DNA from: Candidatus Omnitrophota bacterium | Lineage (GTDB): Bacteria > Omnitrophota > Gorgyraeia > Zapsychrales > JANLHA01 | Direction: 5' to 3' | DNA: 32,000 nt | NCBI GenBank assembly: GCA_963662715.1 | Contig: OY759724.1 | Location: 1,050,001-1,082,000 of the forward strand | Shown: positions 4,591 to 31,990 of the stretch, in pieces | Layout: each line of letters opens with the position of its first letter | Position numbering within the stretch: position 1 is the first letter of the stretch | The notes under the pieces: model-generated | Told to the model about the DNA's origin: nothing | Seen by the model: the letters and a program-made list of their open reading frames with translations, nothing else | The model's database searches: none | Made by a program: the position numbers and the translations under genes

Positions 4591-4599
4591 AACAAATAA

Positions 4600-16409: not shown

Positions 16410-18209
16410 ATGAACAAAGTTCATATATTGTCACCTGATATTATCGCAAAAATCGCCGCGGGAGAAGTCGTGGAGCGCCCGGCATCCGTGTTAAAGGAAC
16501 TTATGGAAAACGCGCTTGATGCCGACACGCAATCCATCGACGTGCACCTGAAGCAGGCCGGAAAAATTTATCTTTCGATCAAAGATAGCGGGACCGGCAT
16601 ATCGGAAGAAGATATTGAAAAAATTTTTCAAAGGCATTCTACCAGCAAAATTTCCTCTCCGGAGGATCTCTTCCGGATTCATTCTCTGGGGTTCCGGGGG
16701 GAAGCCCTTTACAGTATCGCGGCCGTATCGGATATCGTGTTAAGAAGCCGTCCGCAAGACCAGGAGGCCGGATGGGAAATTCATTTGCGGGGGGGAGAAA
16801 AGCTTGGCCTGAAACCCGCGGCCATGCCGGTCGGGACAGAGATCGAGGTCCAGGAACTCTTTTTCAATACTCCGGCCCGAAGAAAATTTTTAAAGTCCAA
16901 CACAACGGAATTGAACCAGATCCTTAACATTTTTATCCCTTATACATTACTGTATCCTCATATCCGTTTCGTTCTCACGCACGGGGAGAAACCGCTTCTC
17001 GACCTGGCGCCGGGGAACCAGCTACGGGCACGCATAGCCGAAGCCCTCAACTTAAACGAAGAACACCTCCTGGAACTGAGCCACACCTTCGAACAAGAAG
17101 CCATTACGGTCCGTGCCGTCCTGGGAGATATCAATATCCACCGCTCCCGCAGGGACATGCAGTTTCTCTTTATTAACAACCGTCCCGTGTTCAGCAAGGT
17201 CCTGAGCTTTCATCTGAATCAAGTCTACCGTCTGATCTTGCCTGACGGGTCTTTCCCCTTCTTCGCCCTTTATATCGACATGCCGGCTGAAGACGTCGAT
17301 GTCAATATTCATCCCACCAAACGGGAAGTCAAAATCAGGGATGAACAAAGTCTGGCAACCCTTCTAAGGCATATGTGCGAAAACGCGCTCCTTTCCGGAG
17401 GATCGGCCAAACAGGCTGTTGCCCGGGACGAAGGCCCTTCATCATCACGACCCTCGTTCGTTCAACAGGCCCTGTCGGGGACGGCGCAGCAAGCAGGAGA
17501 GGAAACGAGAATGTCTTTTGTGCAACAGGGGGAGGAAAAGGCCGTAAAACACTTCCGCCTTTCGCCTACGGAACAATATTCTTTCCCGGAGAAAAAGCAT
17601 CCCGGCCTTCAGGGGGAACCCCTTCTTTTTAAAAAACAGGACAATCTGCCGTCCCGACTGGGCCGGGCCCGTTTCGTCGGAACTTTTATCAATAAATTTC
17701 TGTTTTTTGAAGAAGACCGTTCGCTGCTCGTGATAGACCAACATGCCGCTCAGGAACGGATCACGTTTGAACAGCTTGTGCAGCAGATGGAAAAGGGGCA
17801 GATTGAAGTTCAGAATCTTTTAAGCCCGTATCTTCTGGAACTTTCCCCGCAGGACATGCTTTCCTGGGAAGAAGCCCAGCCGGCGCTTGACCAGATAGGC
17901 TTTTCTTCGACGCAATTCGACGAACAGACCGTCGCCATTCATTCCTACCCTGTCCTTATTAAAGATCCGGCCAAAGCCGTCTGTGATCTTCTGGCCGGAG
18001 GGGATTTCGCCCGCTGTGATCATGAAACCATGGCCAGGAGAGCCTGCCGGTCCTCTATTATGGCCGGCGATAAACTCAACCCGGAACAATGTGAATTTTT
18101 ACGCCGGCAGCTGCTCAAATGCCGGGATCCTTTTACTTGCCCTCACGGCCGCCCCACGGTCATGGAACTTAAGGAAGACTTTTTGGATAAACAGTTCTTA
18201 CGCACATAA
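16410..18209 (+). CDS. mutL: DNA mismatch repair protein MutL (endonuclease-type)
   Basis: 599 aa. GHKL ATPase N-terminus (IAAGEVVERPASVLKELMENALDA, DSGTGI). C-terminal endonuclease motifs DQHAAQERITFE and FTCPHGRP. GGAGA RBS 10 nt upstream. Confidence 0.97.
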   Translation: MNKVHILSPDIIAKIAAGEVVERPASVLKELMENALDADTQSIDVHLKQAGKIYLSIKDSGTGISEEDIEKIFQRHSTSKISSPEDLFRIHSLGFRGEALYSIAAVSDIVLRSRPQDQEAGWEIHLRGGEKLGLKPAAMPVGTEIEVQELFFNTPARRKFLKSNTTELNQILNIFIPYTLLYPHIRFVLTHGEKPLLDLAPGNQLRARIAEALNLNEEHLLELSHTFEQEAITVRAVLGDINIHRSRRDMQFLFINNRPVFSKVLSFHLNQVYRLILPDGSFPFFALYIDMPAEDVDVNIHPTKREVKIRDEQSLATLLRHMCENALLSGGSAKQAVARDEGPSSSRPSFVQQALSGTAQQAGEETRMSFVQQGEEKAVKHFRLSPTEQYSFPEKKHPGLQGEPLLFKKQDNLPSRLGRARFVGTFINKFLFFEEDRSLLVIDQHAAQERITFEQLVQQMEKGQIEVQNLLSPYLLELSPQDMLSWEEAQPALDQIGFSSTQFDEQTVAIHSYPVLIKDPAKAVCDLLAGGDFARCDHETMARRACRSSIMAGDKLNPEQCEFLRRQLLKCRDPFTCPHGRPTVMELKEDFLDKQFLRT

Positions 18210-21200
18210 AATACCCGAAAGATGATCGCGGCCCTCTGAATGACCTGTTCCTTGCTGCAGCAGAGCTTAAAAAGGAAAACCGGAAAATAATTTTCCAAAT
18301 GATCTTTTAAAAACTGCTGTCTCTTCCATCCCTGCCAGAATAACCATGTTTCCTGCAGGCTCTTGGCATACCGTCCTTCTCTCCACTGAAAATGCAGCCG
18401 TTCCATCATCCACAGGACCTGACGTCTGCTAAAAAACAGGACCTCTTTAAAAATATTATTTAACGCCAACAATGCAAAAGCCTCGACATCCTTAAAAAAT
18501 TCGTCTTTATCCGCCGGCGGGCTTAAGCCCGTGCTGGCATAATTATGTTTATCATAGACCACCCGTATGACCTCCTGTTGAAATATTCCGGAGAATCTCG
18601 GAGGCGGGATAATGTTCCCAAATTTGGCAAAAAACAACTCCGTTGTTCGCGTCAGCAAAAACCAATTGAGCCCGGAGGATACCGGGATAGCCGGAGGCAC
18701 TTCCTTGGATAGGCCGAAAGGAGCAAAAGGATTCATAAGGACAGGCGAAGACGGCATCAGTGTCGGCATAAGCAGCTCCGGTATCAGGACGTTCACCGGC
18801 GGCAGGATTTCTCTGTTTTTCTTCTGGCTCTTAACCGGCAACGATTCCACGACAATAGCCGCACCGACAGAAGAGGCTTTTTCCGTTCTCCGCGAAACAG
18901 GATAAGAACCTATCGCAAGAGCCGCTCCGGCACGGACTTTCCGGGGATGTTTTGTAACCTGCCGGCCTTCCGGAGACGGGGCGGAAAGAACCACCGTGGA
19001 TCCCTGCGCTCCGTCTGCTTTATCCCGAATGGGATAAGCCCCTATCATGAGGGCGGCACCGGCACGGAATTTCCGGGCCGACTTTATCTCCGGCGTTCCT
19101 TTAGACACCTGATCCAAAGAAATAAGCCGCAATGAACTGGGGCTGGGGTATTCTGAAGAATCCGGCCTGGCATGTTTTATCCGGACAAAAGCCGTATCGA
19201 CAGCCGCCTCCAAATATATGAAAAGGCGGAAAAACTTATTCAATAAATATATAAGATACTGTAACAACTGATGGAAAAACGCCCTGGCCTTTGATAATAA
19301 CAGCGGCAGGTCAATCCATACAACCTGCTCATCTTCCTCTTCATCAACAATATCAGGGAAAACAAGTGAAATTTCTTGATACTTTTTATTCACAGCAACA
19401 ACATTTGTTGTCGCCGGATTGATCTCCATAAAAATTGTGGGCAGGCCATTCTTCCGGGGGTAAAACATCCAGAAAATAATAACCGCTTTATGAAAAATAT
19501 GTCCTTTATGGCAGCAAAACCTGAAAAGGAAGACCGGAAAATAATGTTCCAAATGCTCTTTCAAAAACTGCTGCCTCTCCCACCCCTGCCAAAACAACCA
19601 TGTTTCCTGCAGGCTTTTCACTAGGCGGCTTTCTCTCCACAGGAAAGGAAGGTGTTCTGTAATCCGCCGGACTTGCCGTCCGGCCATAAACATCGCTTCT
19701 TTAAACGACCGCTCAAAACCCCAGCGGGGTTCCGTAAAAAACCGCCTCAGCGCTCCGGATCCTAATGCCCCAAAGGATTCTTCTTCCTTCGTCCATGACC
19801 GCAGGCGGGACAGCCTTTTCCCGTACCGGTCATCCGGCCACGGGTTCATAGTCATACCGGAAGGGAAAAAAATGGCAGGTGTCTTAAAATAAAAACCTCC
19901 CCGAATCCTTGTGTCTTTTTCTTGTCCGGCAGCAGCAGAAAAAGCAGGAAGAACAGCAGACCGGTAACCGGAAGGCCTCTGCTGAAGCTGAAAGGCCAGG
20001 GGCTGCCTGTGGGCCTTTTCCTGAAACGGACGGAGAAACAGAGATTGGGGAAGGACAGAAATTCGCCGGGAATTCTTTTTCAGCGGAGTCAGCGACACAA
20101 AAGAGTTACGGCGTCCTCTGTTGGGAGACCTGGCTTCGGTTTTATGCCGCTGTGATATCCATTCATGTAATAATTTATACATCCGTTCACGAATGACCTG
20201 CTCCCTATTCTTAAGTTGTGTTCCCCAGAAAATCTCCGGCAGCGGATCCGGGACATAGGGATCGCCGAGAATGATAACTTCACCCCAAACCGTTGAGACA
20301 GAAATATCGAACGGACGCTCTTTTATTTCCATATCAAGACCGAATAATAACACCTCAAAAATCTGTTCCGGAATTTCATGATACCATGACCACAAGGAAA
20401 ATTCTCCGGGCCCCAAGCTCCCTGTTGCCGTTTCTTGAATCTTCACAATGGGAAGCCATTCCCCTTTTCCGGCCTCCGGAAAAGTATATAAAGACGGCCC
20501 GCGCTGCATAGGTGACGGAACAGCCGGCGCCTTTATCCTGACAGCCCCTGTAAAAATACGGCCGACCGGCTCAGAGTAAGAAGCAGGCCCGTATCTTACT
20601 AACACATGGTCTAAAAACTTTAATGCCAACAATTCTTCCGGCAGGCTTTCCTCGGGTTTATTGTAAAAACGCTGAACAGGGGGCAGGCATGTCTCTTCAT
20701 AAACAGCAAAGGAAGGAACCTGGTATAACTCATCCGGGAGCTGTTGGGACTTATATGAATAATACAGCCAGTCCCGTGTGCCTAATAAAACCGTATTATC
20801 ATTCAAGGATAGGCGCTCCAGCTGACACGCCTGCAAAACCGATAAAGCGGGTTTATAAACAGGTTTCTGAAACTGAAGGGGTGAAGATATTTTTCCGTGT
20901 GTTTTATTATCTTTAACTGCTTTCAATCGGCCGGGATCCCGGAGCATAAACGGTTCCGGCACCAATGTCAACCTCTTCATTTTCAATAAAATCTCTCTGA
21001 CAATTTCAAAATCGGCTTTATCGTTTGCGTCGATAAACAAAACGTTCCGCCGGCTCCGTTCAGTCTGAATGACAGGCAAGATAACCTGGCCATGTTCCCT
21101 GACCCGTCTATAGAATAATGAGAGACGTGGGTTGTTATATCGTTTGCGCTGAATCCACCGCTGTTTGGCTGTTTGCTTGGCCACGCCTAAATGCACAATC

Positions 21201-24200
21201 AAAGCCACCCTAAGCTTCTGCTCCTGTAAAACGTTCTTGAACAGCTGATAAGACTCTGCTGTCTTGGGAGAAGTATCAAGCACCAGCCCCCGGGACACAT
21301 CATGTTCTTTCAGCCACTCTGCCAATAAATCCGAATAGATAACCGCGTCGCTGATTTTTGCTCTTTTTCGCATGCCGGAGTCTGCTTGTCTTTTCTGAAC
21401 TTCTAAGCGAATCCTTTCCCCAAAAGAAAGGAACGGTAAACCGAAGTGGTCTGCCATTTTTTGACCGACGGTGGTCTTCCCGGAACACGGCAGGCCCATC
21501 AACACGACAACCGAAGCGTCGGGACGAGCAACCGGAGATGAGACGCTGAAGGGAAGATGCCCGTTAGCAGCGATCAGTCTCCGGGCATCTTTCTGGGCCT
21601 TTAACAGCTCCTGAACAAGATGGCCTTTATTATAAGCGTTCCCCTGAACCGCATCCACGGCATAATCAACGATGGCTTTAAGCTGAGAAGATTTTACCAG
21701 GACAAACCGCCGGGCCATCCAGACCATGTCTTGCGGCTGGGCATTGAGCAATTGATAATAACCGTTACGCCATTTCGGACTAAAAATCTTATTCCGATAC
21801 GGCCCAATAAGTTCACTTCTTTCTTCTCCCATGAAAGCTCCGCCCATATCAAAAAATATAAAAGGATTCGCTCCCTCGCCTTTAAATATGTGGTCCGGAG
21901 TCCTGTCCCAGTTATCAATCACCCTGTCGACAAATTCCACGCCCTGCAAAATCCTGAGCATGCCCGGGGTCAGCCCTTCCGTCACTTCTTCCCAGGTCAA
22001 AGTCGGCAAATCTATAAACGGCATAAGGATAATCTGAGAAAATGCCCGGGAGACCAGATGGGCTTCGGTCGTGGGGATGCCCATAAGGCGGAACAGGCGT
22101 TCGCCGATAATATTAGGGACCAGATGATCGGCATCAATGTATTTGGCAACGTAACGTTCATGCGTTTTTCGATGTTCATAAAGAATCGTGATTTGGGCTC
22201 TCGTCAGGAAACCGAGGAACTGAAAATCCTCCATATCGACCGGCAGGGGCGCCCGTCCGCCGCAGGCCGCCTCTGCCGGTGTGATACGGTTAATCTTCAT
22301 GCGGAAGGTTTCCAGATCATCTTTTAAAATATCCGGCCAGGATTGCCCCGCGGTCCCGTCAATCAACAGCTTGCGGGGCTGGGCCTCCTCATCGACATTT
22401 TGAATGGGCGACGACTCTGCCCGGCGGCCCCGGTCTTGGATGATATCGCTGTCAAGACGCAGGTCCTCGGGGACAGAGGTCTTTCCGGCGATCCTTTCAA
22501 TCATAGGGTTGAAAAAGCGGGCTTTTTCAACAACCTCATGAGGTTCATCCAAATCCCTGTAATTCGAAAGCATGTTTGCGATAAACAGCACAGCAGTGGC
22601 CAGCTGTTCGTCTATGGCGGCCACCGCAACCTGGTTATCCAGATGCGTCCTGAATAAATCTCCTGAAACAAGAAAGGCAAAATCCATCGCATGTATTCCC
22701 AGGGCAGAAAAAACACGCTGTAATGATAAATACTTCATTCCGGAAAACGCGACGTCATCCATAAAAAGGACAGGCATGGCTTTCAGGGCAGAAAAAACGT
22801 CCTGCGCTTGTATTCTTTCAAGGCCGGTCTGCTGCTGAATATCCGTTAAAATCATATCAATCAATAATTTCTTATTTGCATGAACGTGTTGGCTAACAGA
22901 CTTCAGGACTCTTTTTCTCTGCCGGGCTGTGATGTTCTCCGGATGAAGATCAAATGTCTTAATAAGATTTTTATACAGTATATTATTCGTTTCGGGACTC
23001 AGCCAAAGGGTTCCCGGCATGGGTGCATCGCCGTAGGTGTTTTCCCAGGCCACATGGATAAACGCAAATGTCATTGAAGCACTTGAGCCTGAGAGAATAA
23101 TAAGCGAGACCTTTTGCTGATAAATATGCTGAACCATTTTCAGGGCTGCCCGGTAAGCCCCTTCCATAGCAACTTCAAAATCTTCAAGATTAAGCAATAA
23201 CGGTTCCGTTCCCGGAACAGGTGTTCCTGCCGCGCTTTTCCCCCGCACCCCCTTTACGGCTCTGCCTGGCAAAACGGCCGGACGAATTCGAGGCGCGTGC
23301 TGAGGGCTCTTCCCGGGGCTTGAAATCCATGACATTGTTGCATCTTTAAAAACTATCCAGGCCGGCTTAATAAAGGGGATAAATGCCGGGACTTGTCTCA
23401 TGTAGGACAAATACGCCTCCCCGTACTTCAACCATAAAGAATATTCCTCGAGGCGAATACGGAGAATATTCTGCAGGATAAACATGACGATAAACAACAG
23501 TGTTAAAGGACTCGGGATAAAAGCAAGGACGCTTGTGAACAAAACAAGCTGCAAAGCATACTCTGGATGCCGAACCCATTTATAAGGACCGTGTGTCGTC
23601 GGTTCAGACGAAGTGATACTACGATTCCAATCAGCCCAGCGGTTTATCCATAATATTCCTAACCCGCTCAAGACACCGGTAAAAATTCCGCTCATGATTC
23701 TTATGCCGAATCCCGTAAAATCATCCGGGCGGGCCAGACCAAAAGGCACGTGAGCGTCAGGACAGACTAAAAACAAGATAGCGGCGGCAGGCAGCATGAA
23801 TAAGAAAATAAATCTGTTGAGGAATTGCCAGAACCTGCTGTCAAGGGGATGAGTCTGGAGTTTACGACGGAGCTGTTCGCGTTCATGGCTGGTTTTGCAG
23901 GTTTTCCAAGGACGAATTGTCCGGAAAGACATAACCTTATACAAGGAATCAAAACTGCGGCGCAATTCATGATCCGGTCGGAAAAGGATGAAAAGTATGT
24001 CTGCCGCTGAACGGGATATTGTTAAAAGACCGGTGATCACAAGGAATCCGGACAGGGCGGCGTGCCCGGAGAAGAAGGATAAGATAAGAGAAAAGCTGCC
24101 GACGGCCAAAGAAACGGCAACGCCGCTGACCATGCTGAAAGCCTGGCGGGAAGGAGACGCTTGGCTTATACTGACTTTCCCGGAAAAAACACCCCGGGCC

Positions 24201-27200
24201 TGCCGTTTGATTTCCGATAATCCGCGTTTAAAACCGTAAGCCGTGATAAGATGAACTGCTTCCTCTACCCCGACCAGTGTCGGCAGCCACAGCCATTTCC
24301 GGAAGAGCGGCGGCAGTCGGCTGAATGATTCGGAACGGACAAAATTATCCGAAACGGCAACCGTTTCTTGATAATCTGCCCCGTCTTCAGCTTCCTGTTT
24401 CCTTTGAACGGTCTTTGGAGTATTTGTCCTTCGGCCGGCATTCCGGGCATAAATATTAAAAGTGCCTGTGGGGTCAAAACCCAAATTCCTTATCAGTCTA
24501 ATGTAATTATCATATCCCGCCTGCGTCCCTGTTATAAAAACGGCCATGATTTCAAGATGAAATCGCGGGCCGTAGCGTTCAACAAAAGCTTTTAACAGCA
24601 AGGGCCCCAGCCCCTGGCCGCGATATCGCGGATCGACTTCCAGGGTATCTATATGAAAACCGTCCTGGCCCAGTTCCCGGGTTCTAAAAGCCCAAAGAAC
24701 CGCCTTGGGCCGGGCAGGCTCTCCAATATAGAATAAAACCGCTTTCTTTCTAAAACCATGATACCGTCTTATTACAGGCTCCCAGGAGAACTGATCCTGC
24801 AGCAGGACATCGCGGTCCGCTGTATAAAACCAATTCCCTAAGACCTTCAAAACATCCCCCCGGCACACGGTTGCTGTCAGAACAGTGTTCTCTTGCGTAT
24901 CCGGATGAGTAACCGTAAACATCCGGTCTTTCTCTCCCCGAATGACTTCTGCAACCCTTACGACCCCTCCCCAGACAGCTCCGGCGATGGCTCTGACAAG
25001 AACTCTCATCGGGCTCGAAACATTGCCTTGAACCGAAACAGCCCGGGCTTCCCGTGCCGGCATGAACGCATAGATAGCTGCACGTTCCCCGTAAGAATAT
25101 CCGTTCATGCTTTCTTGAGCTGTTTTATAGCCCGGAGGGCTTAAACCTGTACGGGTAAAATTATGATTCGAATCAACCGCTTTGATCATCGCCTCTTTAA
25201 AGCCCCGGATGAAGCGTTGATAGAGGATCATGTTTTCAGATAACACATTGTCTGTAGAACGGTGTTTTCTTTTATCTTGACCTTTACCTTGTTGTCCTGA
25301 TATCTCCCGAAGTACCGTAATGCTTGCCTGAGCTTGATAAGGGGTTCCCGGCCAAGAAGCGGGCGCGGGGATAAATGGGGATCCTTCCTTAGATAAACCA
25401 AAAGGCATGACAGGGTTTATGAGTATCGGCGAAGAAGGTGCGGCCTTTGGCATGAACAGATCCGGCAACAATACTTTCACCGGCGGAGCAGGCAGACGTC
25501 TTTCCGGCAATTTATCCAGATATTCCGCCCAAACATCATCTTTTTCATTTATGATCGGGGATGATGCCGTAGCGACCGTCGCGCCGACAGGTGACGAACT
25601 GATCAATTTGCTTTCCTCCTGCTCCCTGATATACTCCGCCCACACCGGGTCATGCTCATTTATGATCGGGGACGATGCCGTAGCGACCGTCGCGCCGACA
25701 GGTGACGAACTGATCAATTTGCTTTCCTCCTGCTCCCTGATATACTCCGCCCACACCGGATCATGTTTATTGATAAGAGGAGAAGATGTCATCGCCACTG
25801 TTGCCCCCACAGGGGTCGTCCGTGTCTGCATTGTGTTACGACGATTCTGGTCAACAACCTCTAAGGAAATCAACCGTAGCGAACTGCCGGAGTCCCGGGA
25901 CTGTTTACAACCGGCTTGTCTTATCTGCACGGCGGCTGTATGAACGGCTGCTTCAAAATACAGGAAGAAACTCAATGCTTTGTTTATTAAATAAATAAGA
26001 TATTGTAAAAGCTGGTGGAATAAACCCGCGATCTTGGACAATAAGGCAGGGACGTCGATAAAGATAAGCCGGGTGGCCTTTTCTTCATCGGCGACATCCG
26101 GAAAGCCGAATGTCGCTTCTCGATATTCTTTATTTACGATAACAATATTGACTATCCCCTGCGTTTTTTCAGCGGCCTTTGGCATTTTGATATGCTGACG
26201 ATCGCCCATCAAACCCGGATCTTTTTCTATCGCAGTCTTTTTGATAAGCGGTGAACTTGACGGAGTTTCCACAGACAAGGACAATAACTCATCAACACCT
26301 TCCATCTCCTCCTCAAACTGTTCCAGCCGGAAATCGAGGAAAACATCTTTTCGCGCATCCTGCTCATCCTCCAGCATAATAAAGAAATGCTTGCCGGCGT
26401 AATACCGGGCATAGGGTTTCAAAGTTTCAATACAGTAAATCCTCGGGATATGGTGCCCCAGCATATTCAAGGCTTGAGCCAGGGTTGCGTTAATAAAGAC
26501 ACAATATCCCGACAAAGAAATAAAGGACGGCAGGTGTCTGGCCATGATCTTCTGTATTTTCCGGACCTGCCCGGTTAACCTTAAATCCACAAGCTCTGTG
26601 TTCCCTGTCTCCATATCATGAATCATCGATCGATACGCCTCTGCCAATCGGCTGTCCTTCTGAATATTAACAACAAGCTTTTCTATCCGCTCCCTTGCCT
26701 GTCCGGATAAATATTTCCTCGCCATGGGATTATCCCCTGCCAGACGTTCAAGCTGCCGCCGCTCCAGGAAAAGATACCGCATCATCATCGAAGATGAAGA
26801 ACAATCCGAGCCGGCATCCTCGAGGGATGTCTCGGAATGATGTCCGAATGATTTCAAATACCCTGTTAAATAATACGTCGGAATGGTTCTGGCCAGGAAG
26901 TCTTCCCCAAAATGTTCCCGGAGACGGGACCTGTCTCCCTGCCAATGCCTGATCATCCTCATATATAATAATTTTTTCTGTAAATACGTCCTTAAAATAT
27001 CCAGGTAATGCTGATAAAGGTCTGCCTGCTTCATCCCGGCATTCCTTATTTTCCCTTTCTTGGCCACATGAATTCCAAGGTCACGGCAGGCCGCAACCAA
27101 TGTCTGACGCATAAATTTACTCGGAAATCCCTGCAAACGGCTCAACCAGCCTCCCTGGTCATCAGGAACAAAAATATATCCTTTAGCGGTGAGCTCTTTC

Positions 27201-30200
27201 ATGGCTTTGATCCAGAGGATTTTCTTTTCGGACACTTCCGTAAAAGACAGCCGTCCGAAGTCCCTCAACAAGGATCCCCAAAGAGCCCTGATTTCATTTC
27301 CTTCGGTCAAAACGCCGCTTTCAGGCTCATATTCCTCTGCCAGGGATTTCAAAGCCAAAAGATCTTCTAGACGATCGAACAATTCTTCTATTTTTTCTTC
27401 CCGCGCATCCAGCTCCTTTACGGCTTGTTTAAATAAAGCGGCTTTCTCAATCAGCAGCAAAAAGAAGCGGTCCCGGACACCGGAGACAGAATATTCATTC
27501 TTGGGTTTCCTCTTGAAAGAATTCCTGCGTTTCTCTCGAACCATCCGCAGAACGCTTTTATTTATAACGAATGACGCCGAGATAGTTCCGTCATAATTAT
27601 CCAAATATCCGATTAATCTTTTAGACGTATCATCTTTGTTCACATACGCGTAAACATTGATAACAACTTTTGCCCCCTGTTTAACAAATTCTATGTCCGG
27701 GTGCTGTCCGCTTAAAAGCATGCTGAGGATACGGTCGCCGACAGAAATATTCCGGGCGTAAAAGAAATTCAAAACGCCCCTGTGGATGCGCTGCTGCAGC
27801 GTAAACCGGTGAGGCTCCTGCCTCCCCGGAACTGCGGCAAAATAGTCTCCCTGCATATACCTTAATGCATCCAGTTCGAGCTTTGAACGGATCTTGTATT
27901 TTCCTAGATCAACACCACGGAAATTCCTGACTTCCCCTGTCACGGGATCTTCATAATAATGATTTGTCACGACAAGCCTTCCCTCATGCTGCACACAGCA
28001 TTCCACCATCTTTATTTCGCGGACAGGATCAACAATTATATTGAAAAAGGCCCTCTTCCCGACATGTTCCCCTTTCGCACATACCGTGACAAAAGTCCTT
28101 TCACTGAGATGAGAAATGACAACCCGTCCATTCACGGAAATCCTGTCCTTTGTGGCAACGGCTGTGCGCTCTGTAAACGGATACGGCCGATGATTTAAGA
28201 ATTTCATAATATCCATCTCCCCTACCGAGGAAAGCCCGAAACTCGTGTTGCTATCGGCCAAGAAATAATGCCCTTCGCCCGTTACGGCATCCAGATAATA
28301 CAGCGCTTCGACCTTATAGTTCCCGCCGGCATCTTTTACCGAAATCTCTATCATCTCTCCCTGACTTACCGTATCGACAAGCTCAAACCGGACTGTCTGA
28401 TATCCGGCATTCCTGTCCTCCTGGCAGATATGAATATACCGCCGGTAGGCCGGCACCCACAGCCCTCCTTTATAAATTTTGTATCTCTCCTCAACCGGCC
28501 CTTCGTTTCTGATCCTGTAGGCGTAATAATGATAAAAATTACTAAAACTAAAACTGTTTAATTCTGCCAGAAGTCTGTCCGCGGGATACGGGGATATGAC
28601 ACCCGCTTGGGGAGCTGCGCTGTTTTTCATAAAACCAACTTCATGCCGCAGCCATTGACGGTAAATTTCCGGACTTTCTTCTTTTAACCGGTTTAAAAAG
28701 AGTTGGCTTTCAGTCGAAAGCAGGGCGCGGTACAGGAACCTCCGGCTCGTTGGGACCTTCCCGTTGCGTTTTAAGACACGGGCATATGAGACTAAACGCA
28801 CAGGTTCTTCCGACGATAAGACCTTTCTCAAAAGGGACGCTTCACAGGACGTTTCGCCCTTGTTCAAAGTCACAAAAACCGGCTCCACTTCGCTGACGCC
28901 CTGTTCAGCCATTTCCGCAAGAACGTCGTTCTTCAAGGCATCATCCGCAATGTCTTGGCCTTCGTTCTGGCTTTTCAAAGCCAATTTGTTTAACCTGTCG
29001 TTCTGTTTCTGACTGAGTGTTAACCTTTGCCATTGCCCGTCCTCCATTTTAAAAATCAACGAACTGTCCGCTGCGGGCTGGCTCACATCGTTTGTAACCG
29101 GAGAGCTCATCTTCTTTCCTGATATCCCGCTTTGACAGACCGGCCTGTCCTTGAGCTCTAGTCGTGATTTGCTGATATGCCGAGATATTTCCCCGATGGC
29201 TTGCGGGTATTGGTTCTCCCGGTCTTCCCGTCCGGCTTTCTTAAGGTAGGATTCAGCCATGTTTAAAGCCAAAGTGCTTTTGGAGCTGTGGCTGTAACAA
29301 TTAGCCAATTCAATCAGCAGTCCGAGACGAACTTTCTGGTCTTCACATAATTCCAAAGCCTTTTCATAACAGACAATCATTAAGGGCAGACCGGCAGCCT
29401 GTCTGTAAAATTCTCCCAGCAATTTATACAGATCTACGGCTGCTGCATGTCCGATATCCAAAGCCTGCCCGACCATGCTTAAAGCGTCTCCCTCAACGGC
29501 GGCAGAGTCTTTCCCTTGCCGCAGTAATTGATAATAAGCAAAAGCGCCCATAGCGCATAAATCCGCAATTTGGGCAGGATGCTTAGCGTCCGTCTTCTTA
29601 ATAGCTTCTTTTAACAGGCCGAGCCCGGTAGACCAGTTTTTTACCGCAAATTTTTCTTTGGCCAGTTCAACAAAAGCTTCACTTGAACTGTTGATTAAAT
29701 CCAGTTTTTTCTGCATGGACGGCAAACTTTCCGTGAGTCCTAGCGCTGCAAAGATTTCAATATATAAATGGTAAATTTCTGCGGTATATATCTTCCACTC
29801 AACCCAGGGAGCGATAAGGTCGGCCGCATTAAAAAGGGCGTCCACCGCATGAGGCCGCTGCCTTGATTTCATAAGCATTTCATAGCGTGCCATCAGAATA
29901 CGGGTATGGACGGTGCTCATCTCAAACAGGATATATCTAAAATGATCCTGAGCCCAGGCAACATCATCGGTGTGCATACGATCCTGAATCTGAGCAATAA
30001 ACTGTAAGGATTTTTCAAGATAGGCCTCGATTAAGAAATCCTCCTTATCGGCATCGCTCCTGTGCCGGGAGAGATGGAGCTGTTCCCGGGCCAGCATTTC
30101 ATAAATCTTAGCCGCACTTAAAAGCACGTCCATTCTCTGCGGATAAAGCGCCACAGCCCGGTCAATATATATCTGACTCCGGGTCCACAATTTCTCCCGT

Positions 30201-31990
30201 GTATCAGGATCAGTTTCCTGACCTGCCAGGTTTGAGTATAAAAGGGCCAAAGCGCAATGCGCGAGCCCCAGGAGAGGATCTTTATCAACCGCGCGAAGTA
30301 AATAAGATTCTCTTTGTTTCACGCTGTCGCAACTGGCAGCCCTGTTGAAGTCAAGAAGCGCCGGGAAAGATACTCCGGCCCATCGGGACCAGGGAAGGCG
30401 TTCCAACTGTTCGGAAGACATAAAGATAATCTTTTGGCTCCGCTGATCCTCACCGATAACGGCAATCATAAGACTGTCATAGGATTTCTTAAAGTCACGG
30501 TTCATAAGATCGAGGGTCAAAATACGATCTTCGTCCAGCCCGACAATAACGATAACATGCCATGTTTCATGATATCTATGCTCCATCGCGTTCACCGGCA
30601 CAACCCTGGCTTCAAATCCGCTTTCCCGGGCTATTTCGTGATAAATAACAGAAAAGACCAGACAGTTGGCCATATTTAGTTTCATAAAGACTTCGATATC
30701 TCCCTTGGCATTTCTGGTCGAAGGAACCGGGAAAACATTAAACTGCAAAATGTCAAACCAGAATCGGGCGATATCATTGAGGAACAAGGTTGCTTTTTCA
30801 TCGTCCTCCATTTCTTGGACACGGGTTCTGATTCTTCGGGAAATATCATTTAAAGTTAAATTTTTAAACTGCCCGGAAAGAATCTCAGGGGAGTCCGAAG
30901 ACATGAGTTCAGGAATAACGGCCCGGATATTGTCCGGCACAACGTCGGCAAATGTCCGGTAACGAAGAAGCCATAACGGCAGACGCTGATGAACGGCCTC
31001 AAGCAATTCTGTCCTGTGATATTCGTCCAGCACCGGAGAAGATCCAGGAATAAAACCAGCCGCTGCCACCGGTGCTGCCATAAGGATGCTTTTTTCAATT
31101 TCCACGGCGGCAATTTTATCCGTCAGAACGTTAAAGGCATTCAAAGGAACAACACTTTCGTTCCTGGTGGATAACCGCACATCTTTCAGTTGTTTGTGCC
31201 AGAATCCCCCGGAGTTGGCCGTCATGTTGCTTATAATGCACGTTCTGCAATCAGCGTCGGCCAGCATCCGGACAAACGTTCTCAGCAGATTTGTCCCGTA
31301 ACGGGAACCCCGCCCGTGTGCATCCCGGGCGATAACAATGTAAAATAACTTGCCCTGCTTATCGCCTGTGTGGACATAATAGGTCAGCTGCCCGACAACT
31401 TTCCCGCCCCGGGCCATGATAAGGATATCCTGCACAAAGTCATCAGCCAAAAGCCCGATACCATAATCCAGCGGCGGCTCAACATCTCCTTCGTGCAATC
31501 GGTATTCTCTGGGGAAGGAACTTTTGCCGTTATTTCCTAATGCTTGATATAGAGATAAAACATGGATATCGTCATCTCTTCTTGTTGATAAAATAAACTT
31601 CCCGTATAATCTGGCGGCGTCACTTAAAAGCCTGATGTTCGCAAATTCGGAAAACCGGTATTCCTCATCCAGCGACAATACCTTGCTGATGAATTGAGAA
31701 TCACTAAAACAGCTATTTCTGTCGACCTGAACGACGGCATCGAATGCCCGCCCTTTCACCCCTGTCCCTTCCTCTGAAGCAAGAATTCGCATTAATACCT
31801 CACCGACACCCTGACCGAATGAAGAGGCCGTCTGAGCCAAGGATTCCAGTGTCTGAAGCTTTTCAGAAAAATATAATTCTTCCCACCTCGTTTTGATCTG
31901 ATAGACAATCGGCTCCTCCTTCCCCTTCGCAGCGTCTTTTGTCACCGGGGAAGAATGATATTCTGCTGACATTCCAGCCATTGAGGACAT
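18143..31990 (-). CDS. Giant multi-domain protein (>=4,615 aa), unknown function; concatenated enzyme-like modules; 5' end possibly beyond the window
   Basis: A single frame is open for 13,848 nt, from ATG at 31990-31988 to TGA at 18145-18143. There is no in-frame stop between the ATG and the window edge. Domain-like motifs are listed as the sub-features below. Confidence 0.9.
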   Translation of the reverse strand: MSSMAGMSAEYHSSPVTKDAAKGKEEPIVYQIKTRWEELYFSEKLQTLESLAQTASSFGQGVGEVLMRILASEEGTGVKGRAFDAVVQVDRNSCFSDSQFISKVLSLDEEYRFSEFANIRLLSDAARLYGKFILSTRRDDDIHVLSLYQALGNNGKSSFPREYRLHEGDVEPPLDYGIGLLADDFVQDILIMARGGKVVGQLTYYVHTGDKQGKLFYIVIARDAHGRGSRYGTNLLRTFVRMLADADCRTCIISNMTANSGGFWHKQLKDVRLSTRNESVVPLNAFNVLTDKIAAVEIEKSILMAAPVAAAGFIPGSSPVLDEYHRTELLEAVHQRLPLWLLRYRTFADVVPDNIRAVIPELMSSDSPEILSGQFKNLTLNDISRRIRTRVQEMEDDEKATLFLNDIARFWFDILQFNVFPVPSTRNAKGDIEVFMKLNMANCLVFSVIYHEIARESGFEARVVPVNAMEHRYHETWHVIVIVGLDEDRILTLDLMNRDFKKSYDSLMIAVIGEDQRSQKIIFMSSEQLERLPWSRWAGVSFPALLDFNRAASCDSVKQRESYLLRAVDKDPLLGLAHCALALLYSNLAGQETDPDTREKLWTRSQIYIDRAVALYPQRMDVLLSAAKIYEMLAREQLHLSRHRSDADKEDFLIEAYLEKSLQFIAQIQDRMHTDDVAWAQDHFRYILFEMSTVHTRILMARYEMLMKSRQRPHAVDALFNAADLIAPWVEWKIYTAEIYHLYIEIFAALGLTESLPSMQKKLDLINSSSEAFVELAKEKFAVKNWSTGLGLLKEAIKKTDAKHPAQIADLCAMGAFAYYQLLRQGKDSAAVEGDALSMVGQALDIGHAAAVDLYKLLGEFYRQAAGLPLMIVCYEKALELCEDQKVRLGLLIELANCYSHSSKSTLALNMAESYLKKAGREDRENQYPQAIGEISRHISKSRLELKDRPVCQSGISGKKMSSPVTNDVSQPAADSSLIFKMEDGQWQRLTLSQKQNDRLNKLALKSQNEGQDIADDALKNDVLAEMAEQGVSEVEPVFVTLNKGETSCEASLLRKVLSSEEPVRLVSYARVLKRNGKVPTSRRFLYRALLSTESQLFLNRLKEESPEIYRQWLRHEVGFMKNSAAPQAGVISPYPADRLLAELNSFSFSNFYHYYAYRIRNEGPVEERYKIYKGGLWVPAYRRYIHICQEDRNAGYQTVRFELVDTVSQGEMIEISVKDAGGNYKVEALYYLDAVTGEGHYFLADSNTSFGLSSVGEMDIMKFLNHRPYPFTERTAVATKDRISVNGRVVISHLSERTFVTVCAKGEHVGKRAFFNIIVDPVREIKMVECCVQHEGRLVVTNHYYEDPVTGEVRNFRGVDLGKYKIRSKLELDALRYMQGDYFAAVPGRQEPHRFTLQQRIHRGVLNFFYARNISVGDRILSMLLSGQHPDIEFVKQGAKVVINVYAYVNKDDTSKRLIGYLDNYDGTISASFVINKSVLRMVREKRRNSFKRKPKNEYSVSGVRDRFFLLLIEKAALFKQAVKELDAREEKIEELFDRLEDLLALKSLAEEYEPESGVLTEGNEIRALWGSLLRDFGRLSFTEVSEKKILWIKAMKELTAKGYIFVPDDQGGWLSRLQGFPSKFMRQTLVAACRDLGIHVAKKGKIRNAGMKQADLYQHYLDILRTYLQKKLLYMRMIRHWQGDRSRLREHFGEDFLARTIPTYYLTGYLKSFGHHSETSLEDAGSDCSSSSMMMRYLFLERRQLERLAGDNPMARKYLSGQARERIEKLVVNIQKDSRLAEAYRSMIHDMETGNTELVDLRLTGQVRKIQKIMARHLPSFISLSGYCVFINATLAQALNMLGHHIPRIYCIETLKPYARYYAGKHFFIMLEDEQDARKDVFLDFRLEQFEEEMEGVDELLSLSVETPSSSPLIKKTAIEKDPGLMGDRQHIKMPKAAEKTQGIVNIVIVNKEYREATFGFPDVADEEKATRLIFIDVPALLSKIAGLFHQLLQYLIYLINKALSFFLYFEAAVHTAAVQIRQAGCKQSRDSGSSLRLISLEVVDQNRRNTMQTRTTPVGATVAMTSSPLINKHDPVWAEYIREQEESKLISSSPVGATVATASSPIINEHDPVWAEYIREQEESKLISSSPVGATVATASSPIINEKDDVWAEYLDKLPERRLPAPPVKVLLPDLFMPKAAPSSPILINPVMPFGLSKEGSPFIPAPASWPGTPYQAQASITVLREISGQQGKGQDKRKHRSTDNVLSENMILYQRFIRGFKEAMIKAVDSNHNFTRTGLSPPGYKTAQESMNGYSYGERAAIYAFMPAREARAVSVQGNVSSPMRVLVRAIAGAVWGGVVRVAEVIRGEKDRMFTVTHPDTQENTVLTATVCRGDVLKVLGNWFYTADRDVLLQDQFSWEPVIRRYHGFRKKAVLFYIGEPARPKAVLWAFRTRELGQDGFHIDTLEVDPRYRGQGLGPLLLKAFVERYGPRFHLEIMAVFITGTQAGYDNYIRLIRNLGFDPTGTFNIYARNAGRRTNTPKTVQRKQEAEDGADYQETVAVSDNFVRSESFSRLPPLFRKWLWLPTLVGVEEAVHLITAYGFKRGLSEIKRQARGVFSGKVSISQASPSRQAFSMVSGVAVSLAVGSFSLILSFFSGHAALSGFLVITGLLTISRSAADILFILFRPDHELRRSFDSLYKVMSFRTIRPWKTCKTSHEREQLRRKLQTHPLDSRFWQFLNRFIFLFMLPAAAILFLVCPDAHVPFGLARPDDFTGFGIRIMSGIFTGVLSGLGILWINRWADWNRSITSSEPTTHGPYKWVRHPEYALQLVLFTSVLAFIPSPLTLLFIVMFILQNILRIRLEEYSLWLKYGEAYLSYMRQVPAFIPFIKPAWIVFKDATMSWISSPGKSPQHAPRIRPAVLPGRAVKGVRGKSAAGTPVPGTEPLLLNLEDFEVAMEGAYRAALKMVQHIYQQKVSLIILSGSSASMTFAFIHVAWENTYGDAPMPGTLWLSPETNNILYKNLIKTFDLHPENITARQRKRVLKSVSQHVHANKKLLIDMILTDIQQQTGLERIQAQDVFSALKAMPVLFMDDVAFSGMKYLSLQRVFSALGIHAMDFAFLVSGDLFRTHLDNQVAVAAIDEQLATAVLFIANMLSNYRDLDEPHEVVEKARFFNPMIERIAGKTSVPEDLRLDSDIIQDRGRRAESSPIQNVDEEAQPRKLLIDGTAGQSWPDILKDDLETFRMKINRITPAEAACGGRAPLPVDMEDFQFLGFLTRAQITILYEHRKTHERYVAKYIDADHLVPNIIGERLFRLMGIPTTEAHLVSRAFSQIILMPFIDLPTLTWEEVTEGLTPGMLRILQGVEFVDRVIDNWDRTPDHIFKGEGANPFIFFDMGGAFMGEERSELIGPYRNKIFSPKWRNGYYQLLNAQPQDMVWMARRFVLVKSSQLKAIVDYAVDAVQGNAYNKGHLVQELLKAQKDARRLIAANGHLPFSVSSPVARPDASVVVLMGLPCSGKTTVGQKMADHFGLPFLSFGERIRLEVQKRQADSGMRKRAKISDAVIYSDLLAEWLKEHDVSRGLVLDTSPKTAESYQLFKNVLQEQKLRVALIVHLGVAKQTAKQRWIQRKRYNNPRLSLFYRRVREHGQVILPVIQTERSRRNVLFIDANDKADFEIVREILLKMKRLTLVPEPFMLRDPGRLKAVKDNKTHGKISSPLQFQKPVYKPALSVLQACQLERLSLNDNTVLLGTRDWLYYSYKSQQLPDELYQVPSFAVYEETCLPPVQRFYNKPEESLPEELLALKFLDHVLVRYGPASYSEPVGRIFTGAVRIKAPAVPSPMQRGPSLYTFPEAGKGEWLPIVKIQETATGSLGPGEFSLWSWYHEIPEQIFEVLLFGLDMEIKERPFDISVSTVWGEVIILGDPYVPDPLPEIFWGTQLKNREQVIRERMYKLLHEWISQRHKTEARSPNRGRRNSFVSLTPLKKNSRRISVLPQSLFLRPFQEKAHRQPLAFQLQQRPSGYRSAVLPAFSAAAGQEKDTRIRGGFYFKTPAIFFPSGMTMNPWPDDRYGKRLSRLRSWTKEEESFGALGSGALRRFFTEPRWGFERSFKEAMFMAGRQVRRITEHLPFLWRESRLVKSLQETWLFWQGWERQQFLKEHLEHYFPVFLFRFCCHKGHIFHKAVIIFWMFYPRKNGLPTIFMEINPATTNVVAVNKKYQEISLVFPDIVDEEEDEQVVWIDLPLLLSKARAFFHQLLQYLIYLLNKFFRLFIYLEAAVDTAFVRIKHARPDSSEYPSPSSLRLISLDQVSKGTPEIKSARKFRAGAALMIGAYPIRDKADGAQGSTVVLSAPSPEGRQVTKHPRKVRAGAALAIGSYPVSRRTEKASSVGAAIVVESLPVKSQKKNREILPPVNVLIPELLMPTLMPSSPVLMNPFAPFGLSKEVPPAIPVSSGLNWFLLTRTTELFFAKFGNIIPPPRFSGIFQQEVIRVVYDKHNYASTGLSPPADKDEFFKDVEAFALLALNNIFKEVLFFSRRQVLWMMERLHFQWREGRYAKSLQETWLFWQGWKRQQFLKDHLENYFPVFLFKLCCSKEQVIQRAAIIFRVFYVRKNCLSKKSSLSSMTVGRP
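18187..18452 (-). repeat. Dispersed intragenic module B, copy 2 (C-terminal end of the giant ORF)
   Basis: FKEVLFFSRRQVLWMMERLHFQWREGRYAKSLQETWLFWQGWKRQQFLKDHLENYFPVFLFKLCCSKEQVIQRAAIIFRVFYVRKNCL. About 85% nucleotide identity to copy 1 over the central ~90 nt, judged by eye. Confidence 0.8.
18496..19429 (-). repeat. Dispersed intragenic module A, copy 2
   Basis: VNKKYQEISLVFPDIVDEEE..IDLPLLLSKARAFFHQLLQYLIYLLNK..YLEAAVDTA..SSLRLISLD, then the tandem repeats, then IPELLMPTLMPSSPVLMNPFAPFGLSKE, then KHNYASTGLSPP. Collinear with copy 1, which lies about 6.7 kb away. Confidence 0.8.
18815..19078 (-). repeat. Degenerate in-frame 132-bp (44-aa) two-copy tandem repeat inside the giant ORF
   Basis: ARKFRAGAALMIGAYPI... 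and PRKVRAGAALAIGSYPV... The ggataag anchors at 19032 and 18900 are exactly 132 nt apart. Confidence 0.55.
19440..19705 (-). repeat. Dispersed intragenic module B, copy 1 (Trp/Cys-rich WLFWQGW module)
   Basis: FKEAMFMAGRQVRRITEHLPFLWRESRLVKSLQETWLFWQGWERQQFLKEHLEHYFPVFLFRFCCHKGHIFHKAVIIFWMFYPRKNGL. Confidence 0.8.
20990..21515 (-). other. Giant ORF domain: adenylate-kinase-like P-loop NMP kinase
   Basis: VVVLMGLPCSGKTTVGQKMADHFGLPFLSFGERIR (P-loop at 21471-21497) and GLVLDTSPKTAESYQLF. These parallel the AK motifs GxPGxGKgT / hlStGdllR / GfilDGfPRt. Confidence 0.6.
21560..22255 (-). other. Giant ORF domain: atypical kinase-like fold (PI3/4-kinase- or HipA-like)
   Basis: ERYVAKYID (Lys), IIGERLF (Glu), catalytic-loop-like VIDNWDRTPDHIF, and DFG-like FIFFDMGGAF (21834-21931). 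Confidence 0.45.
22640..23215 (-). other. Giant ORF domain: phosphoribosyltransferase (type I PRTase)-like
   Basis: VSLIILSGSSASMTF plus a PRPP-loop-like VLFMDDVAFSGMKYL: four hydrophobic residues, two acidic residues, then a small-residue loop. Motif-level call only. Confidence 0.35.
23350..24150 (-). other. Giant ORF domain: multi-pass membrane ICMT/PEMT-like methyltransferase
   Basis: About 5-6 hydrophobic helices (VSGVAVSLAVGSFSLILSFF, LSGFLVITGLLTI, FIFLFMLPAAAILFLV, IMSGIFTGVLSGLGILWI, LQLVLFTSVLAFIPSPLTLLFIVMFIL). The family signature is HGPYKWVRHPEYALQL...RIRLEEYSLWLKYGEAYLSYMRQVPAFIPF. Confidence 0.65.
24440..24925 (-). other. Giant ORF domain: GNAT acetyltransferase 2
   Basis: FHIDTLEVDPRYRGQGLGPLLLKAFVERYG (textbook GNAT motif A) followed by YIRLIRNLGFDPTG (motif B-like). 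Confidence 0.7.
25126..26185 (-). repeat. Dispersed intragenic module A, copy 1 (FHQLLQYLIYL module)
   Basis: VNKEYREATFGFPDVADEE..IDVPALLSKIAGLFHQLLQYLIYLINK..YFEAAVHTA..SSLRLISLE, then the tandem repeats, then LPDLFMPKAAPSSPILINPVMPFGLSKE, then NHNFTRTGLSPP. Confidence 0.8.
25518..25816 (-). repeat. In-frame 111-bp (37-aa) tandem repeat, ~2.7 copies, inside the giant ORF
   Basis: Units 25551-25661 and 25662-25772 differ at only about 5 of 111 nt. The encoded unit is PVGATVATASSPIINEHDPVWAEYIREQEESKLISSS. The flanking copies are more diverged. Confidence 0.9.
26320..26520 (-). other. Giant ORF domain: transglutaminase/papain-like Cys-His-Asp core 2
   Basis: LSGYC(1830)VFINATLAQALNMLGHHIPRIYCIE...GKHFFIMLEDEQDARKDVFLDF. 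Cys codon at 26501-26503, His at 26387-26389, Asp at 26333-26335. Same spacing logic as core 1. Confidence 0.45.
27565..28420 (-). other. Giant ORF region: three related beta-rich modules
   Basis: Each module ends in a similar hairpin: KVEALYYLDAVTGEGHYF / LVVTNHYYEDPVTGEVRNF / RLIGYLDNYDGTISASF. The similarity was seen by eye only. Confidence 0.35.
29200..30310 (-). other. Giant ORF region: TPR-like / all-helical repeats (~370 aa)
   Basis: Repeated A/L/Y-rich helix pairs, for example LLRAVDKDPLLGLAHCALALLYSNL, YIDRAVALYPQRMDVLLSAAKIYEML, YEKALELCEDQKVRLGLLIELANCY. Confidence 0.5.
30500..30700 (-). other. Giant ORF domain: transglutaminase/papain-like Cys-His-Asp core 1
   Basis: NMANC(443)LVFSVIYHEIARESGFEARVVPV...HETWHVIVIVGLDEDRILTLDL. 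Cys codon at 30662-30664, His at 30556-30558, Asp at 30509-30511. TPR-like repeats follow it, a SirB1/YchA-like arrangement. Confidence 0.5.
31170..31560 (-). other. Giant ORF domain: GNAT-like acetyltransferase 1
   Basis: VVGQLTYYVHTGDKQGKLFYIVIARDAHGRGSRYGTNLLRTFVRMLAD is a beta-strand followed by an R/Q-x-x-G-x-G/A-like acetyl-CoA loop. Motif-level call only. Confidence 0.45.

Follow-up and report, generated by a model that had tools for sequence, protein, structure and literature searches.

A recurring SSP[VILM] tetrapeptide delimits enzyme modules in a giant Omnitrophota protein and may mark polyprotein processing sites

Introduction

Giant multi-enzyme open reading frames (ORFs), among them the 'Archaeovorins' and the 'multi-enzyme metabolic cluster' class, have been described from Omnitrophota (bioRxiv 10.1101/2023.11.21.568195 and 10.64898/2026.06.07.730766; Nat Microbiol PMC10066038), in papers that apply size thresholds of 20 kb or 10 thousand amino acids (kaa). 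Post-translational cleavage has been proposed for these proteins, with the cleavage points stated to be lacking, a gap because of which the authors of the main study could not divide the proteins up when analysing them. Here we analyse a tetrapeptide, SSP[VILM], that recurs along a giant ORF on the minus strand of a 32,000-nucleotide stretch, hereafter the window, from a Candidatus Omnitrophota bacterium (GenBank assembly GCA_963662715.1, contig OY759724.1, positions 1,050,001 to 1,082,000). A recurring inter-domain peptide goes unmentioned in all three papers, a full-text literature search for the motif strings returned unrelated uses only, and no report of a conserved inter-module delimiter in bacterial giant proteins turned up in the Omnitrophota papers or when full texts were searched for the motif strings and for 'polyprotein' together with Omnitrophota. 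Similar to the described giants, the window ORF tiles unrelated ordinary enzymes (a GNAT acetyltransferase, kinases, a methyltransferase) and contains internal membrane helices, and its closest named domain-level relatives come mostly from Omnitrophota assemblies; unlike them, it measures 4.6 kaa (more if it extends past the window), below the 20-kb and 10-kaa thresholds.

As with giant multi-enzyme ORFs, polyprotein processing is already known, in viruses and in MARTX toxins. Viral polyproteins, e.g. those cut by the picornavirus 3C or potyvirus NIa proteases, carry short, strict protease sites of four to seven residues that lie in linkers, have variable flanks and are lineage-specific. The giant protein resembles them in its short, strict motif with variable flanks, in the position of that motif in linkers between functional units, and in the lineage-specific identity of the motif; it differs in being the product of a chromosomal bacterial gene with metabolic and regulatory enzyme modules and no recognised cognate protease, and its cleavage is putative. 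The MARTX toxins of Vibrio contain RTX repeats and an internal, inositol-hexakisphosphate-activated cysteine protease domain (CPD) that releases the effector domains by cutting after Leu in the linkers (x-Leu, then Ala, Ser or Gly). Both are giant bacterial proteins in which several unrelated enzymatic modules are joined by linkers with processing sites and cut by a protease of the same protein, sites and protease being putative in our case. Unlike MARTX, however, the window protein gave no match to RTX repeats or a CPD in Pfam and NCBIfam scans of its whole length, its motif is SSP[VILM] rather than x-Leu followed by Ala, Ser or Gly, and neither secretion nor a eukaryotic target finds support.

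Results

SSP[VILM] is a peptide signal

The giant ORF encodes 16 SSP tripeptides; the next residue is V, I, L or M at 15 of them and G at one (ISSPG). All lie in its reading frame at the coordinates recorded in the initial annotation; only the five-residue strings given there fail to match, trivially, as the 12-base ranges span SSPx alone. The composition of the protein predicts 1.16 SSP (the chance figure had been estimated as about one) and 0.30 SSP[VILM], against the 16 and 15 observed, and 3000 residue shuffles produced at most six SSP and three SSP[VILM]. No other tripeptide of the protein is over-represented as strongly as SSP (P = 1.8e-13), which is nine orders of magnitude ahead of the runner-up (about 1e-4). 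Removal of two of the three units of a tandem array described below leaves 12 SSP and 11 SSP[VILM], and when the dispersed paralogue pairs (sites at residues 13/962 and 2186/4414) are collapsed as well, 11 SSP (P = 4.5e-8) and 10 SSP[VILM] (P = 1.1e-12) remain, i.e. the enrichment noted initially survives the collapsing of repeats.

The motif is specific in order and in residue identity. Permuted tripeptides occur near expectation (SPS 2, PSS 4, SPP 2, PSP 4), on which ground a compositional bias of Ser/Pro-rich linkers was rejected as the source of the motif. Ser precedes 16 of the 32 SP dipeptides, compared with a Ser frequency of 7.1% among residues (P = 8e-11), and the hydrophobic residue after SSP, present at all sites but one, has a chance probability of 1.5e-8; TSP occurs once and STP never. 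The remaining five reading frames of the region contain between zero and five SSP each, and among the 4,899 residues of the 11 other ORFs in the window there is one, KISSPEDL in MutL, the same single instance that had been picked out by eye. Because the codons for Ser, Pro and the hydrophobic residue vary from site to site (e.g. TCT TCC CCG GTG, AGC TCT CCG GTT and TCG AGC CCG ATG), selection acts at the protein level, and SSP[VILM] is established as a peptide signal; a DNA word, such as an uptake or recombination sequence, was rejected for the window on the same codon diversity.

The motif lies in linkers between enzyme modules

An AlphaFold model of residues 2880-3720, built on an alignment of 13 homologous segments, comprises two confident domains (model residues 53-300, with a predicted local distance difference test score, pLDDT, of about 90, and 337-600), and all four SSP sites of this region fall in stretches with pLDDT below 50. 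The SSPG site is in a 52-residue leader (model residues 1-52), the SSPI at residue 3193 lies within model residues 302-336, the SSPV at residue 3484 follows the second modelled domain by five residues, and the SSPL at residue 3702 is in the tail. Within the part covered by the alignment three of three sites are in low-confidence sequence, to which 17.5% of the residues there belong (chance about 0.005), and these three directly flank the two confident domains. A single-sequence AlphaFold model of residues 1-1000 (mean pLDDT 41.7) was too poor to show more than coil for the sites at 13, 317 and 962. Throughout the protein the site flanks lean towards disorder-promoting residues, with a mean index of 0.157 compared with 0.065 for the whole sequence.

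Most of the boundary positions proposed in the initial annotation agree with the domain assignments (Table 1). The first GNAT match is followed by the motif at residue 317 and a helical-repeat (TPR-like) block, whose last helix spans residues 928-945 in the low-confidence model, by the one at 962; the motif at 2325 precedes the second GNAT module, with homology from residue 2361; the match to the ICMT-like domain ends at about residue 2876, ahead of the motif at 2890; and the adenylate-kinase match ends at about 3664, ahead of 3702. The model likewise places sites between the kinase-like domain and its neighbours on either side, of which the upstream one, initially called PRTase-like, is here termed Rossmann-like. 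For the kinase-like domain the best Foldseek match is Helicobacter pylori CtkA (3akl, E = 3e-4, TM score 0.56-0.58). That the sites are in linkers rather than in folded cores, as had been proposed, is thus what the AlphaFold model indicates, and we consider it established that the motif marks flexible linkers between independent enzyme modules.

Table 1. The giant ORF, its domains and its SSP sites, by window position (nucleotides) and residue of the encoded protein
Feature	Window position	Strand	Residues	Remarks
Giant ORF	18143-31990	minus	4,615 residues (codons)	string of unrelated enzyme modules
SSPV	31943-31954	minus	13-16	paralogue of the site at 962; coil in low-confidence model
GNAT1			188-253	Pfam match
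SSPV	31031-31042	minus	317-320	after GNAT1; coil in low-confidence model
Transglutaminase-like Cys-His-Asp core 1	30530-30754	minus	413-487	Transglut_core, E = 2e-4, 21.9 bits, under the Pfam cut-off of 23
SSPV	29096-29107	minus	962-965	after helical-repeat (TPR-like) block; coil in low-confidence model
SSPL	26246-26257	minus	1912-1915	
Five SSP[LVI]	25553-25786	minus	2069, 2095, 2106, 2132, 2143	in tandem array
SSPI	25424-25435	minus	2186-2189	in conserved stretch PSSPILINPVMPFGLSKE; paralogue of the site at 4414
SSPM	25007-25018	minus	2325-2328	upstream of GNAT2
GNAT2 acetyltransferase module	24431-24910	minus	2361-2520 (about)	sequence searches
Uncharacterised membrane domain	23891-24355	minus	2546-2700	EExxH and HEL; no Pfam family
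ICMT/PEMT-like membrane methyltransferase domain	23354-23674	minus	2773-2879 (about)	sequence searches
SSPG	23312-23323	minus	2890-2893	after ICMT-like domain, at the start of a Pro/Gly/Lys/Arg-rich linker
Rossmann-like domain	22454-23197	minus	2932-3179	model, pLDDT about 90
SSPI	22403-22414	minus	3193-3196	35-residue linker from Rossmann-like to kinase-like domain
Protein-kinase-like domain	21554-22345	minus	3216-3479	starts with WPDIL; model and Foldseek
SSPV	21530-21541	minus	3484-3487	gap between kinase-like domain and adenylate kinase; the latter's first strand begins 6 residues on
Adenylate-kinase domain	20999-21508	minus	3495-3664	sequence searches
SSPL	20876-20887	minus	3702-3705	after adenylate-kinase domain
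SSPV	18740-18751	minus	4414-4417	paralogue of the site at 2186

The motif recurs at equivalent boundaries in other giants

A word-indexed homologue search returned nothing with the whole protein or with residues 2880-3720, and with residues 3150-3500 a single relative (P0006; relatives and their loci are given P and L numbers); whole-protein scans of genome and metagenome collections likewise gave no close relative, only an adenylate-kinase-like match. An exhaustive HMMER search with residues 2300-3499 as the query yielded single-domain matches only, many of them in other very long proteins. The source assemblies are Omnitrophota for P0002, P0005, P0006, P0012, P0015 and P0038, Auribacterota for P0001 and P0003, and an assembly labelled 'Desulfobulbaceae' for P0024. 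Homologues of the kinase-like domain are P0001-P0003, P0006, P0007 and P0015. The giant relatives combine, in an order that varies from one to another, PGK, HD, GNAT, deaminase, LOG-like and ICMT modules, GT4 glycosyltransferases, a flavin adenine dinucleotide (FAD) oxidoreductase, a pyridoxal phosphate (PLP) enzyme and a phosphoglucomutase, a make-up that agrees with the multi-enzyme class of giants in the two preprints.

Domains homologous to those of the window protein are flanked by [SA]SP[VILA] in eight sequences and by a different motif, R[SA]ExR, in three others. P0009 (4,042 residues) contains eight SSP where 0.5 are expected, P0002 (1,609 residues) nine [SA]SP[VMA], and the fragments P0012 and P0024 four and three sites, respectively; the motif is also present in the fragments P0006 and P0015. 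In the 12-kb locus L007 (ENA ERZ1286166 contig_1152), which includes P0007, there are six SSP[VIL] in plus-strand frames and none in minus-strand frames. About 25 short same-strand genes are called in L007, with PGI, Bac_transf, Pantoate_transf, Lactamase_B and kinase-like fragments; it looks like a giant multi-enzyme gene split by assembly frameshift errors.

At individual boundaries, the motif is found upstream of the kinase-like domain, at variable distance from its 'WPDIL' start, as SSPI in the window protein and in P0006, SSPV in P0007 and P0002, and SSPV plus SSPA in P0015; the SSPI at residue 3193 aligns with the SSPI, SSPV and SSPA of P0006, P0007 and P0015. Downstream of the same domain the SSPV of the window protein aligns with an AASPV of P0002. 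Around the GNAT domain SSPM in our sequence corresponds to SSPV on both sides in P0012 and before the domain in P0024, the upstream SSPV of both relatives being 0-19 residues from the GNAT2-equivalent domain. P0012, in the order PGK, ASPI, SSPA, HD, SSPV, GNAT, SSPV, has motifs separating every Pfam domain. Sequence logos of the pooled sites show a core of four or five residues, with Ser or Ala favoured just upstream of SSP and nearly uninformative flanks. The view of the initial annotation that the motif is non-random, functional and placed at domain boundaries is accordingly supported by enrichment, by linker position and by its presence at the same boundaries in domain-level relatives.

The short or stand-alone relatives P0001, P0003, P0038 and P0050 are without motifs. 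The sequences of P0001 and P0003, both kinase-like, end within about 25 residues of the position of the SSPV at residue 3484, and free adenylate kinases would begin just past it. Since module order differs between giants, and short kinase-like relatives end and free adenylate kinases would start near this SSPV, the modules look like whole proteins. In neighbouring ordinary sequence we counted one motif in 3,008 residues (L002), none in the ORF segments of all frames upstream in L003 (4,904 residues) and none in 5,284 residues (L008); such motifs are peculiar to the giant ORFs.

The locus L005 (metagenome contig Ga0156378_1042) is, over its entire 20.8 kb, one open frame of at least 6,924 residues that encodes the kinase-like domain followed by membrane helices and contains no SSP or R[SA]ExR delimiter. 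The match line of L006 (contig Ga0209417_1001090) is identical to that of L005. L005, with the domain and no motif, led us to reject an obligatory partnership between the kinase-like domain and the motif.

A second delimiter, R[SA]ExR, occupies the same positions

In P0005 (L003:10001-24789, 4,930 residues) there are 17 R[SAT]ExR compared with 0.31 expected, in P0008 (4,931 residues) 13 compared with 0.43, and in P0021 (L008:10001-29569, 6,522 residues) 16 compared with 0.44. These sites are between Pfam domains, outside the Pfam envelopes except for boundary-edge cases, and absent from neighbouring genes. The Rossmann-like domain, which is common to other giant proteins (homologues in P0004, P0005, P0008, P0021, P0038 and P0050), permits a direct comparison of the two classes. 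Upstream of it stand SSPG in the window protein, RSEVR in P0005 and RTETR in P0008, and downstream, within 5-16 residues of its conserved C-terminal 'P-DLR-D', come SSPI in the window protein, two copies of RSEVR in P0005, RTEMR in P0008 and, for P0021, RHENR. Judged on these alignments, it is established that motifs of the two classes stand at matching places around homologous domains, and the identity of the motif is specific to the lineage.

A DNA-level signal in some relatives

In P0002 (L002:23-4852, GCA_038068755.1) the sequence GCCGCCTCGCCGGTG encodes AASPV five times exactly and once more with a terminal ATG. The AASP[VM] codons, GCC GCC TCG CCG GTG, are G+C-rich in an ORF of 40% G+C and have unrelated flanks, the chance of the shared codons is about 0.001 per site at the codon usage of that ORF, and the 12-mer is found nowhere else in the 14.8-kb locus. 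Similarly, the first Arg of the P0005 motif is encoded by CGN at 17 of 17 sites, and by CGT at 12 of these, compared with a usage of 23% in the ORF. The codons are diverse in the window and in L004, L007 and L008. In some genomes the DNA that codes for the delimiter may be the product of recent spread or may serve as a junction for recombination, which does not account for the window.

Duplications within the ORF and its surroundings

The tandem array (25545-25813) consists of about 2.3 units of 37 residues (111 nucleotides) that are 87-98% identical, each of which duplicates two SSP sites, and looks like a recent expansion. Residues 5-119 resemble residues 954-1072; residues 1941-2289 (25124-26170) resemble 4189-4495 (18506-19426) with 38% identity, and the C-terminal copy has AYPI and SYPV at positions matching two of the SSP sites; residues 4096-4181 (19448-19705) resemble 4514-4599 (18194-18451) with 64% identity.

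At the right edge of the window the frame of the giant ORF is still open, with no stop among the codons GAC CAG GAT upstream of its first ATG. This allows for a protein of more than 4,615 residues, for a start other than the ATG at 31990 and for an internal rather than N-terminal site at residue 13. Hydrophobic helices at residues ~2620-2680, 2727-2750 and 2820-2850 constitute an internal membrane anchor, and in the first ~2,600 residues no signal peptide was detected, nor was any hydrophobic stretch above the transmembrane threshold. The PADLOC library gave only a weak match on the giant protein, at the P-loop region of the adenylate kinase. The gene adjoins mutS and mutL, and its 3' end overlaps convergently by 67 nucleotides (18143-18209) with that of mutL (16410-18209, plus strand). 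A 529-residue ORF at 11772-13361 (minus strand) has a TPR match and about one proline in all (fraction 0.002). A further ORF at 305-1903 (minus strand) gives a weak match to PMT_2 (protein O-mannosyltransferase-like glycosyltransferases; E = 4.6e-4), and is relevant only if the motif is a glycosylation site.

Discussion

We favour the reading that SSP[VILM] is a lineage-specific delimiter between modules and most likely the processing site of a bacterial polyprotein, to which we assign a probability of about 0.42. A dedicated factor would read the motif, and this reader would most likely be a site-specific endopeptidase, by which the precursor would be divided into its several enzymes in the manner of viral polyproteins or MARTX toxins, with motif and reader co-evolving within each lineage. 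Processing is preferred because the anatomy of the sites is that of viral polyprotein sites, because the interchange of Ser and Ala (AASPV, RAExR) fits recognition of shape by a protease better than hydroxyl chemistry, and because the field already suspects cleavage and lacks the sites.

Two candidate proteases within the ORF, both weak and speculative, are the transglutaminase-like core and the EExxH/HEL membrane domain. The initial annotation had proposed two thiol-protease-like cores as the processing enzymes, of which one coincides with the Transglut_core match and the other is without family support in the Pfam scan; the remaining motif-bearing giants share neither of them. The membrane domain is widespread among Omnitrophota-like proteins and recurs in P0010, P0014, P0018, P0022, P0031, P0060 and P0099, at the extreme C-terminus in four of these. 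Its invariants are P, EE..H (in P0022 HExxH), G, Q, G and HEL, it belongs to no Pfam family, and its only PDB match, to the site-2 protease 3b4r, is non-significant. It could be a membrane metalloprotease that acts within the same protein. Neither this domain nor the transglutaminase-like core is specifically common to the other SSP-type giants.

Several observations weigh against processing. It is from the motif pattern that we infer cleavage itself, and a search across the motif-bearing giants found no protease domain common to them; within the window protein the Transglut_core match is below the Pfam cut-off and the second Cys-His-Asp core lacks a family. Four other giants (P0010, P0014, P0018 and the L005 ORF) have no delimiter, so that this architecture can do without the motif. 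Cutting at the paired sites of the tandem units and of P0005, which are 10-11 residues apart, would set free tiny peptides, and inter-motif segments of 950 and 712 residues probably contain several domains each. The adenylate-kinase part was modelled without alignment depth, such that the low confidence near the site at 3702 says little. Finally, the Ser before Pro is invariant at 40 of 40 pooled SSP-type sites (the search pattern fixed Pro and left free this Ser alone), as would also suit an acceptor of phosphate or glycan.

Modification of the linkers, i.e. phosphorylation of Ser before Pro, possibly by the embedded CtkA-like kinase, or O-glycosylation, which would regulate, stiffen or protect them, is the alternative to which this last point belongs, and we consider it unlikely. 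The sites lie in exposed linkers, a domain of protein-kinase fold is part of the giant and adjoins SSP motifs in P0002, P0006, P0007 and P0015 also, and a weakly PMT_2-like ORF is present in the window. An invariant Ser-Pro in disordered linkers of a protein that itself carries a kinase fold recalls proline-directed Ser/Thr phosphorylation; unlike in that system, however, Thr-Pro is unused, a preceding Ser or Ala and a following hydrophobic residue are needed as well, and the embedded domain resembles CtkA and not the CDK- or MAPK-type kinases. The fold suggested initially for this domain stands, whilst its suggested role as the modifier of SSP is weakened by the motif-less L005 giant with the same domain, and P0001 and P0003 also carry the domain without the motif. 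In the R[SA]ExR class Ala replaces Ser at 9 of 47 sites, and Ala, His or Thr at 12; for that class the tolerance of Ala speaks against a modification that depends on a hydroxyl group. The PMT_2-like gene, besides its weak match, lies at a distance of 16 kb, and periplasmic glycosylation is improbable for the first ~2,600 residues in view of the missing signal peptide and membrane-grade hydrophobic stretch. A docking peptide, whose copies would bring one partner (e.g. a chaperone, a factor for secretion or assembly, or a domain of TPR or PDZ type) to each linker of a 'beads on a string' scaffold that stays uncut, seems to us rather less likely again. Its anatomy would be that of cleavage sites, i.e. 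short and strict, in disordered linkers, with variable flanks and lineage-specific, the giant has a TPR-like block of its own (at low confidence), and both motif classes contain [S/A]-x-hydrophobic, which would resemble the peptide ligands of PDZ-type domains. No candidate partner emerged, however; the fourth motif position of P0021 is N, A, D, S or T rather than hydrophobic; and docking leaves unexplained why the motif is found almost universally at module boundaries, including directly before small soluble enzymes.

Two further explanations, both of which we regard as improbable, dispense with a reader altogether. The motif could be a junction scar that recombination at a short stretch of shared sequence left as it joined or shuffled modules in the DNA, and that was kept without any function of the peptide. 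The near-identical G+C-rich DNA of the six AASP[VM] sites of P0002 amid unrelated flanks, the Arg codon bias of P0005 and the differing module order of the giants would all fit. In the window, however, the codons are fully diverse and the peptide is strict, as they are in L004, L007 and L008, a combination by which purifying selection on the peptide is recognised; a scar of 12-15 nucleotides would lose its peptide under synonymous turnover unless the peptide mattered. Least probable, by a little, is a passive structural element (a helix cap, for instance, or an extended turn with Pro in it) that arises from linker composition and is recognised by no factor. Sites in coil or low-confidence regions with disorder-leaning flanks are as expected of such an element; permutations of the same residues are unenriched, however, the following residue is almost always hydrophobic, other lineages use a chemically unrelated and equally strict motif at the same boundaries, and some giants have none.

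Returning to processing, a more general proposal, which we advance tentatively, is that Omnitrophota-type giants would be true polyproteins, in effect an operon in one frame, with products released at [SA]SP[VILA] or R[SA]ExR by co-evolving proteases and with the delimiter DNA perhaps serving as microhomology for shuffling. What is new here is a strict, positionally conserved inter-module delimiter, which supplies exact candidate sites of cutting or recognition, the first concrete ones for these giants. The motifs can be used in searches of proteomes for peptide termini, for splitting giants for structure prediction and in phylogenetic profiling for their readers. Giant ORFs are a hallmark of Omnitrophota and other small-celled symbiotic bacteria, and the motifs make it testable whether their products act as single polypeptides or as many pieces; if cleavage proves true, the expression of ordinary metabolic enzymes as polyproteins would be a bacterial strategy of gene organisation.

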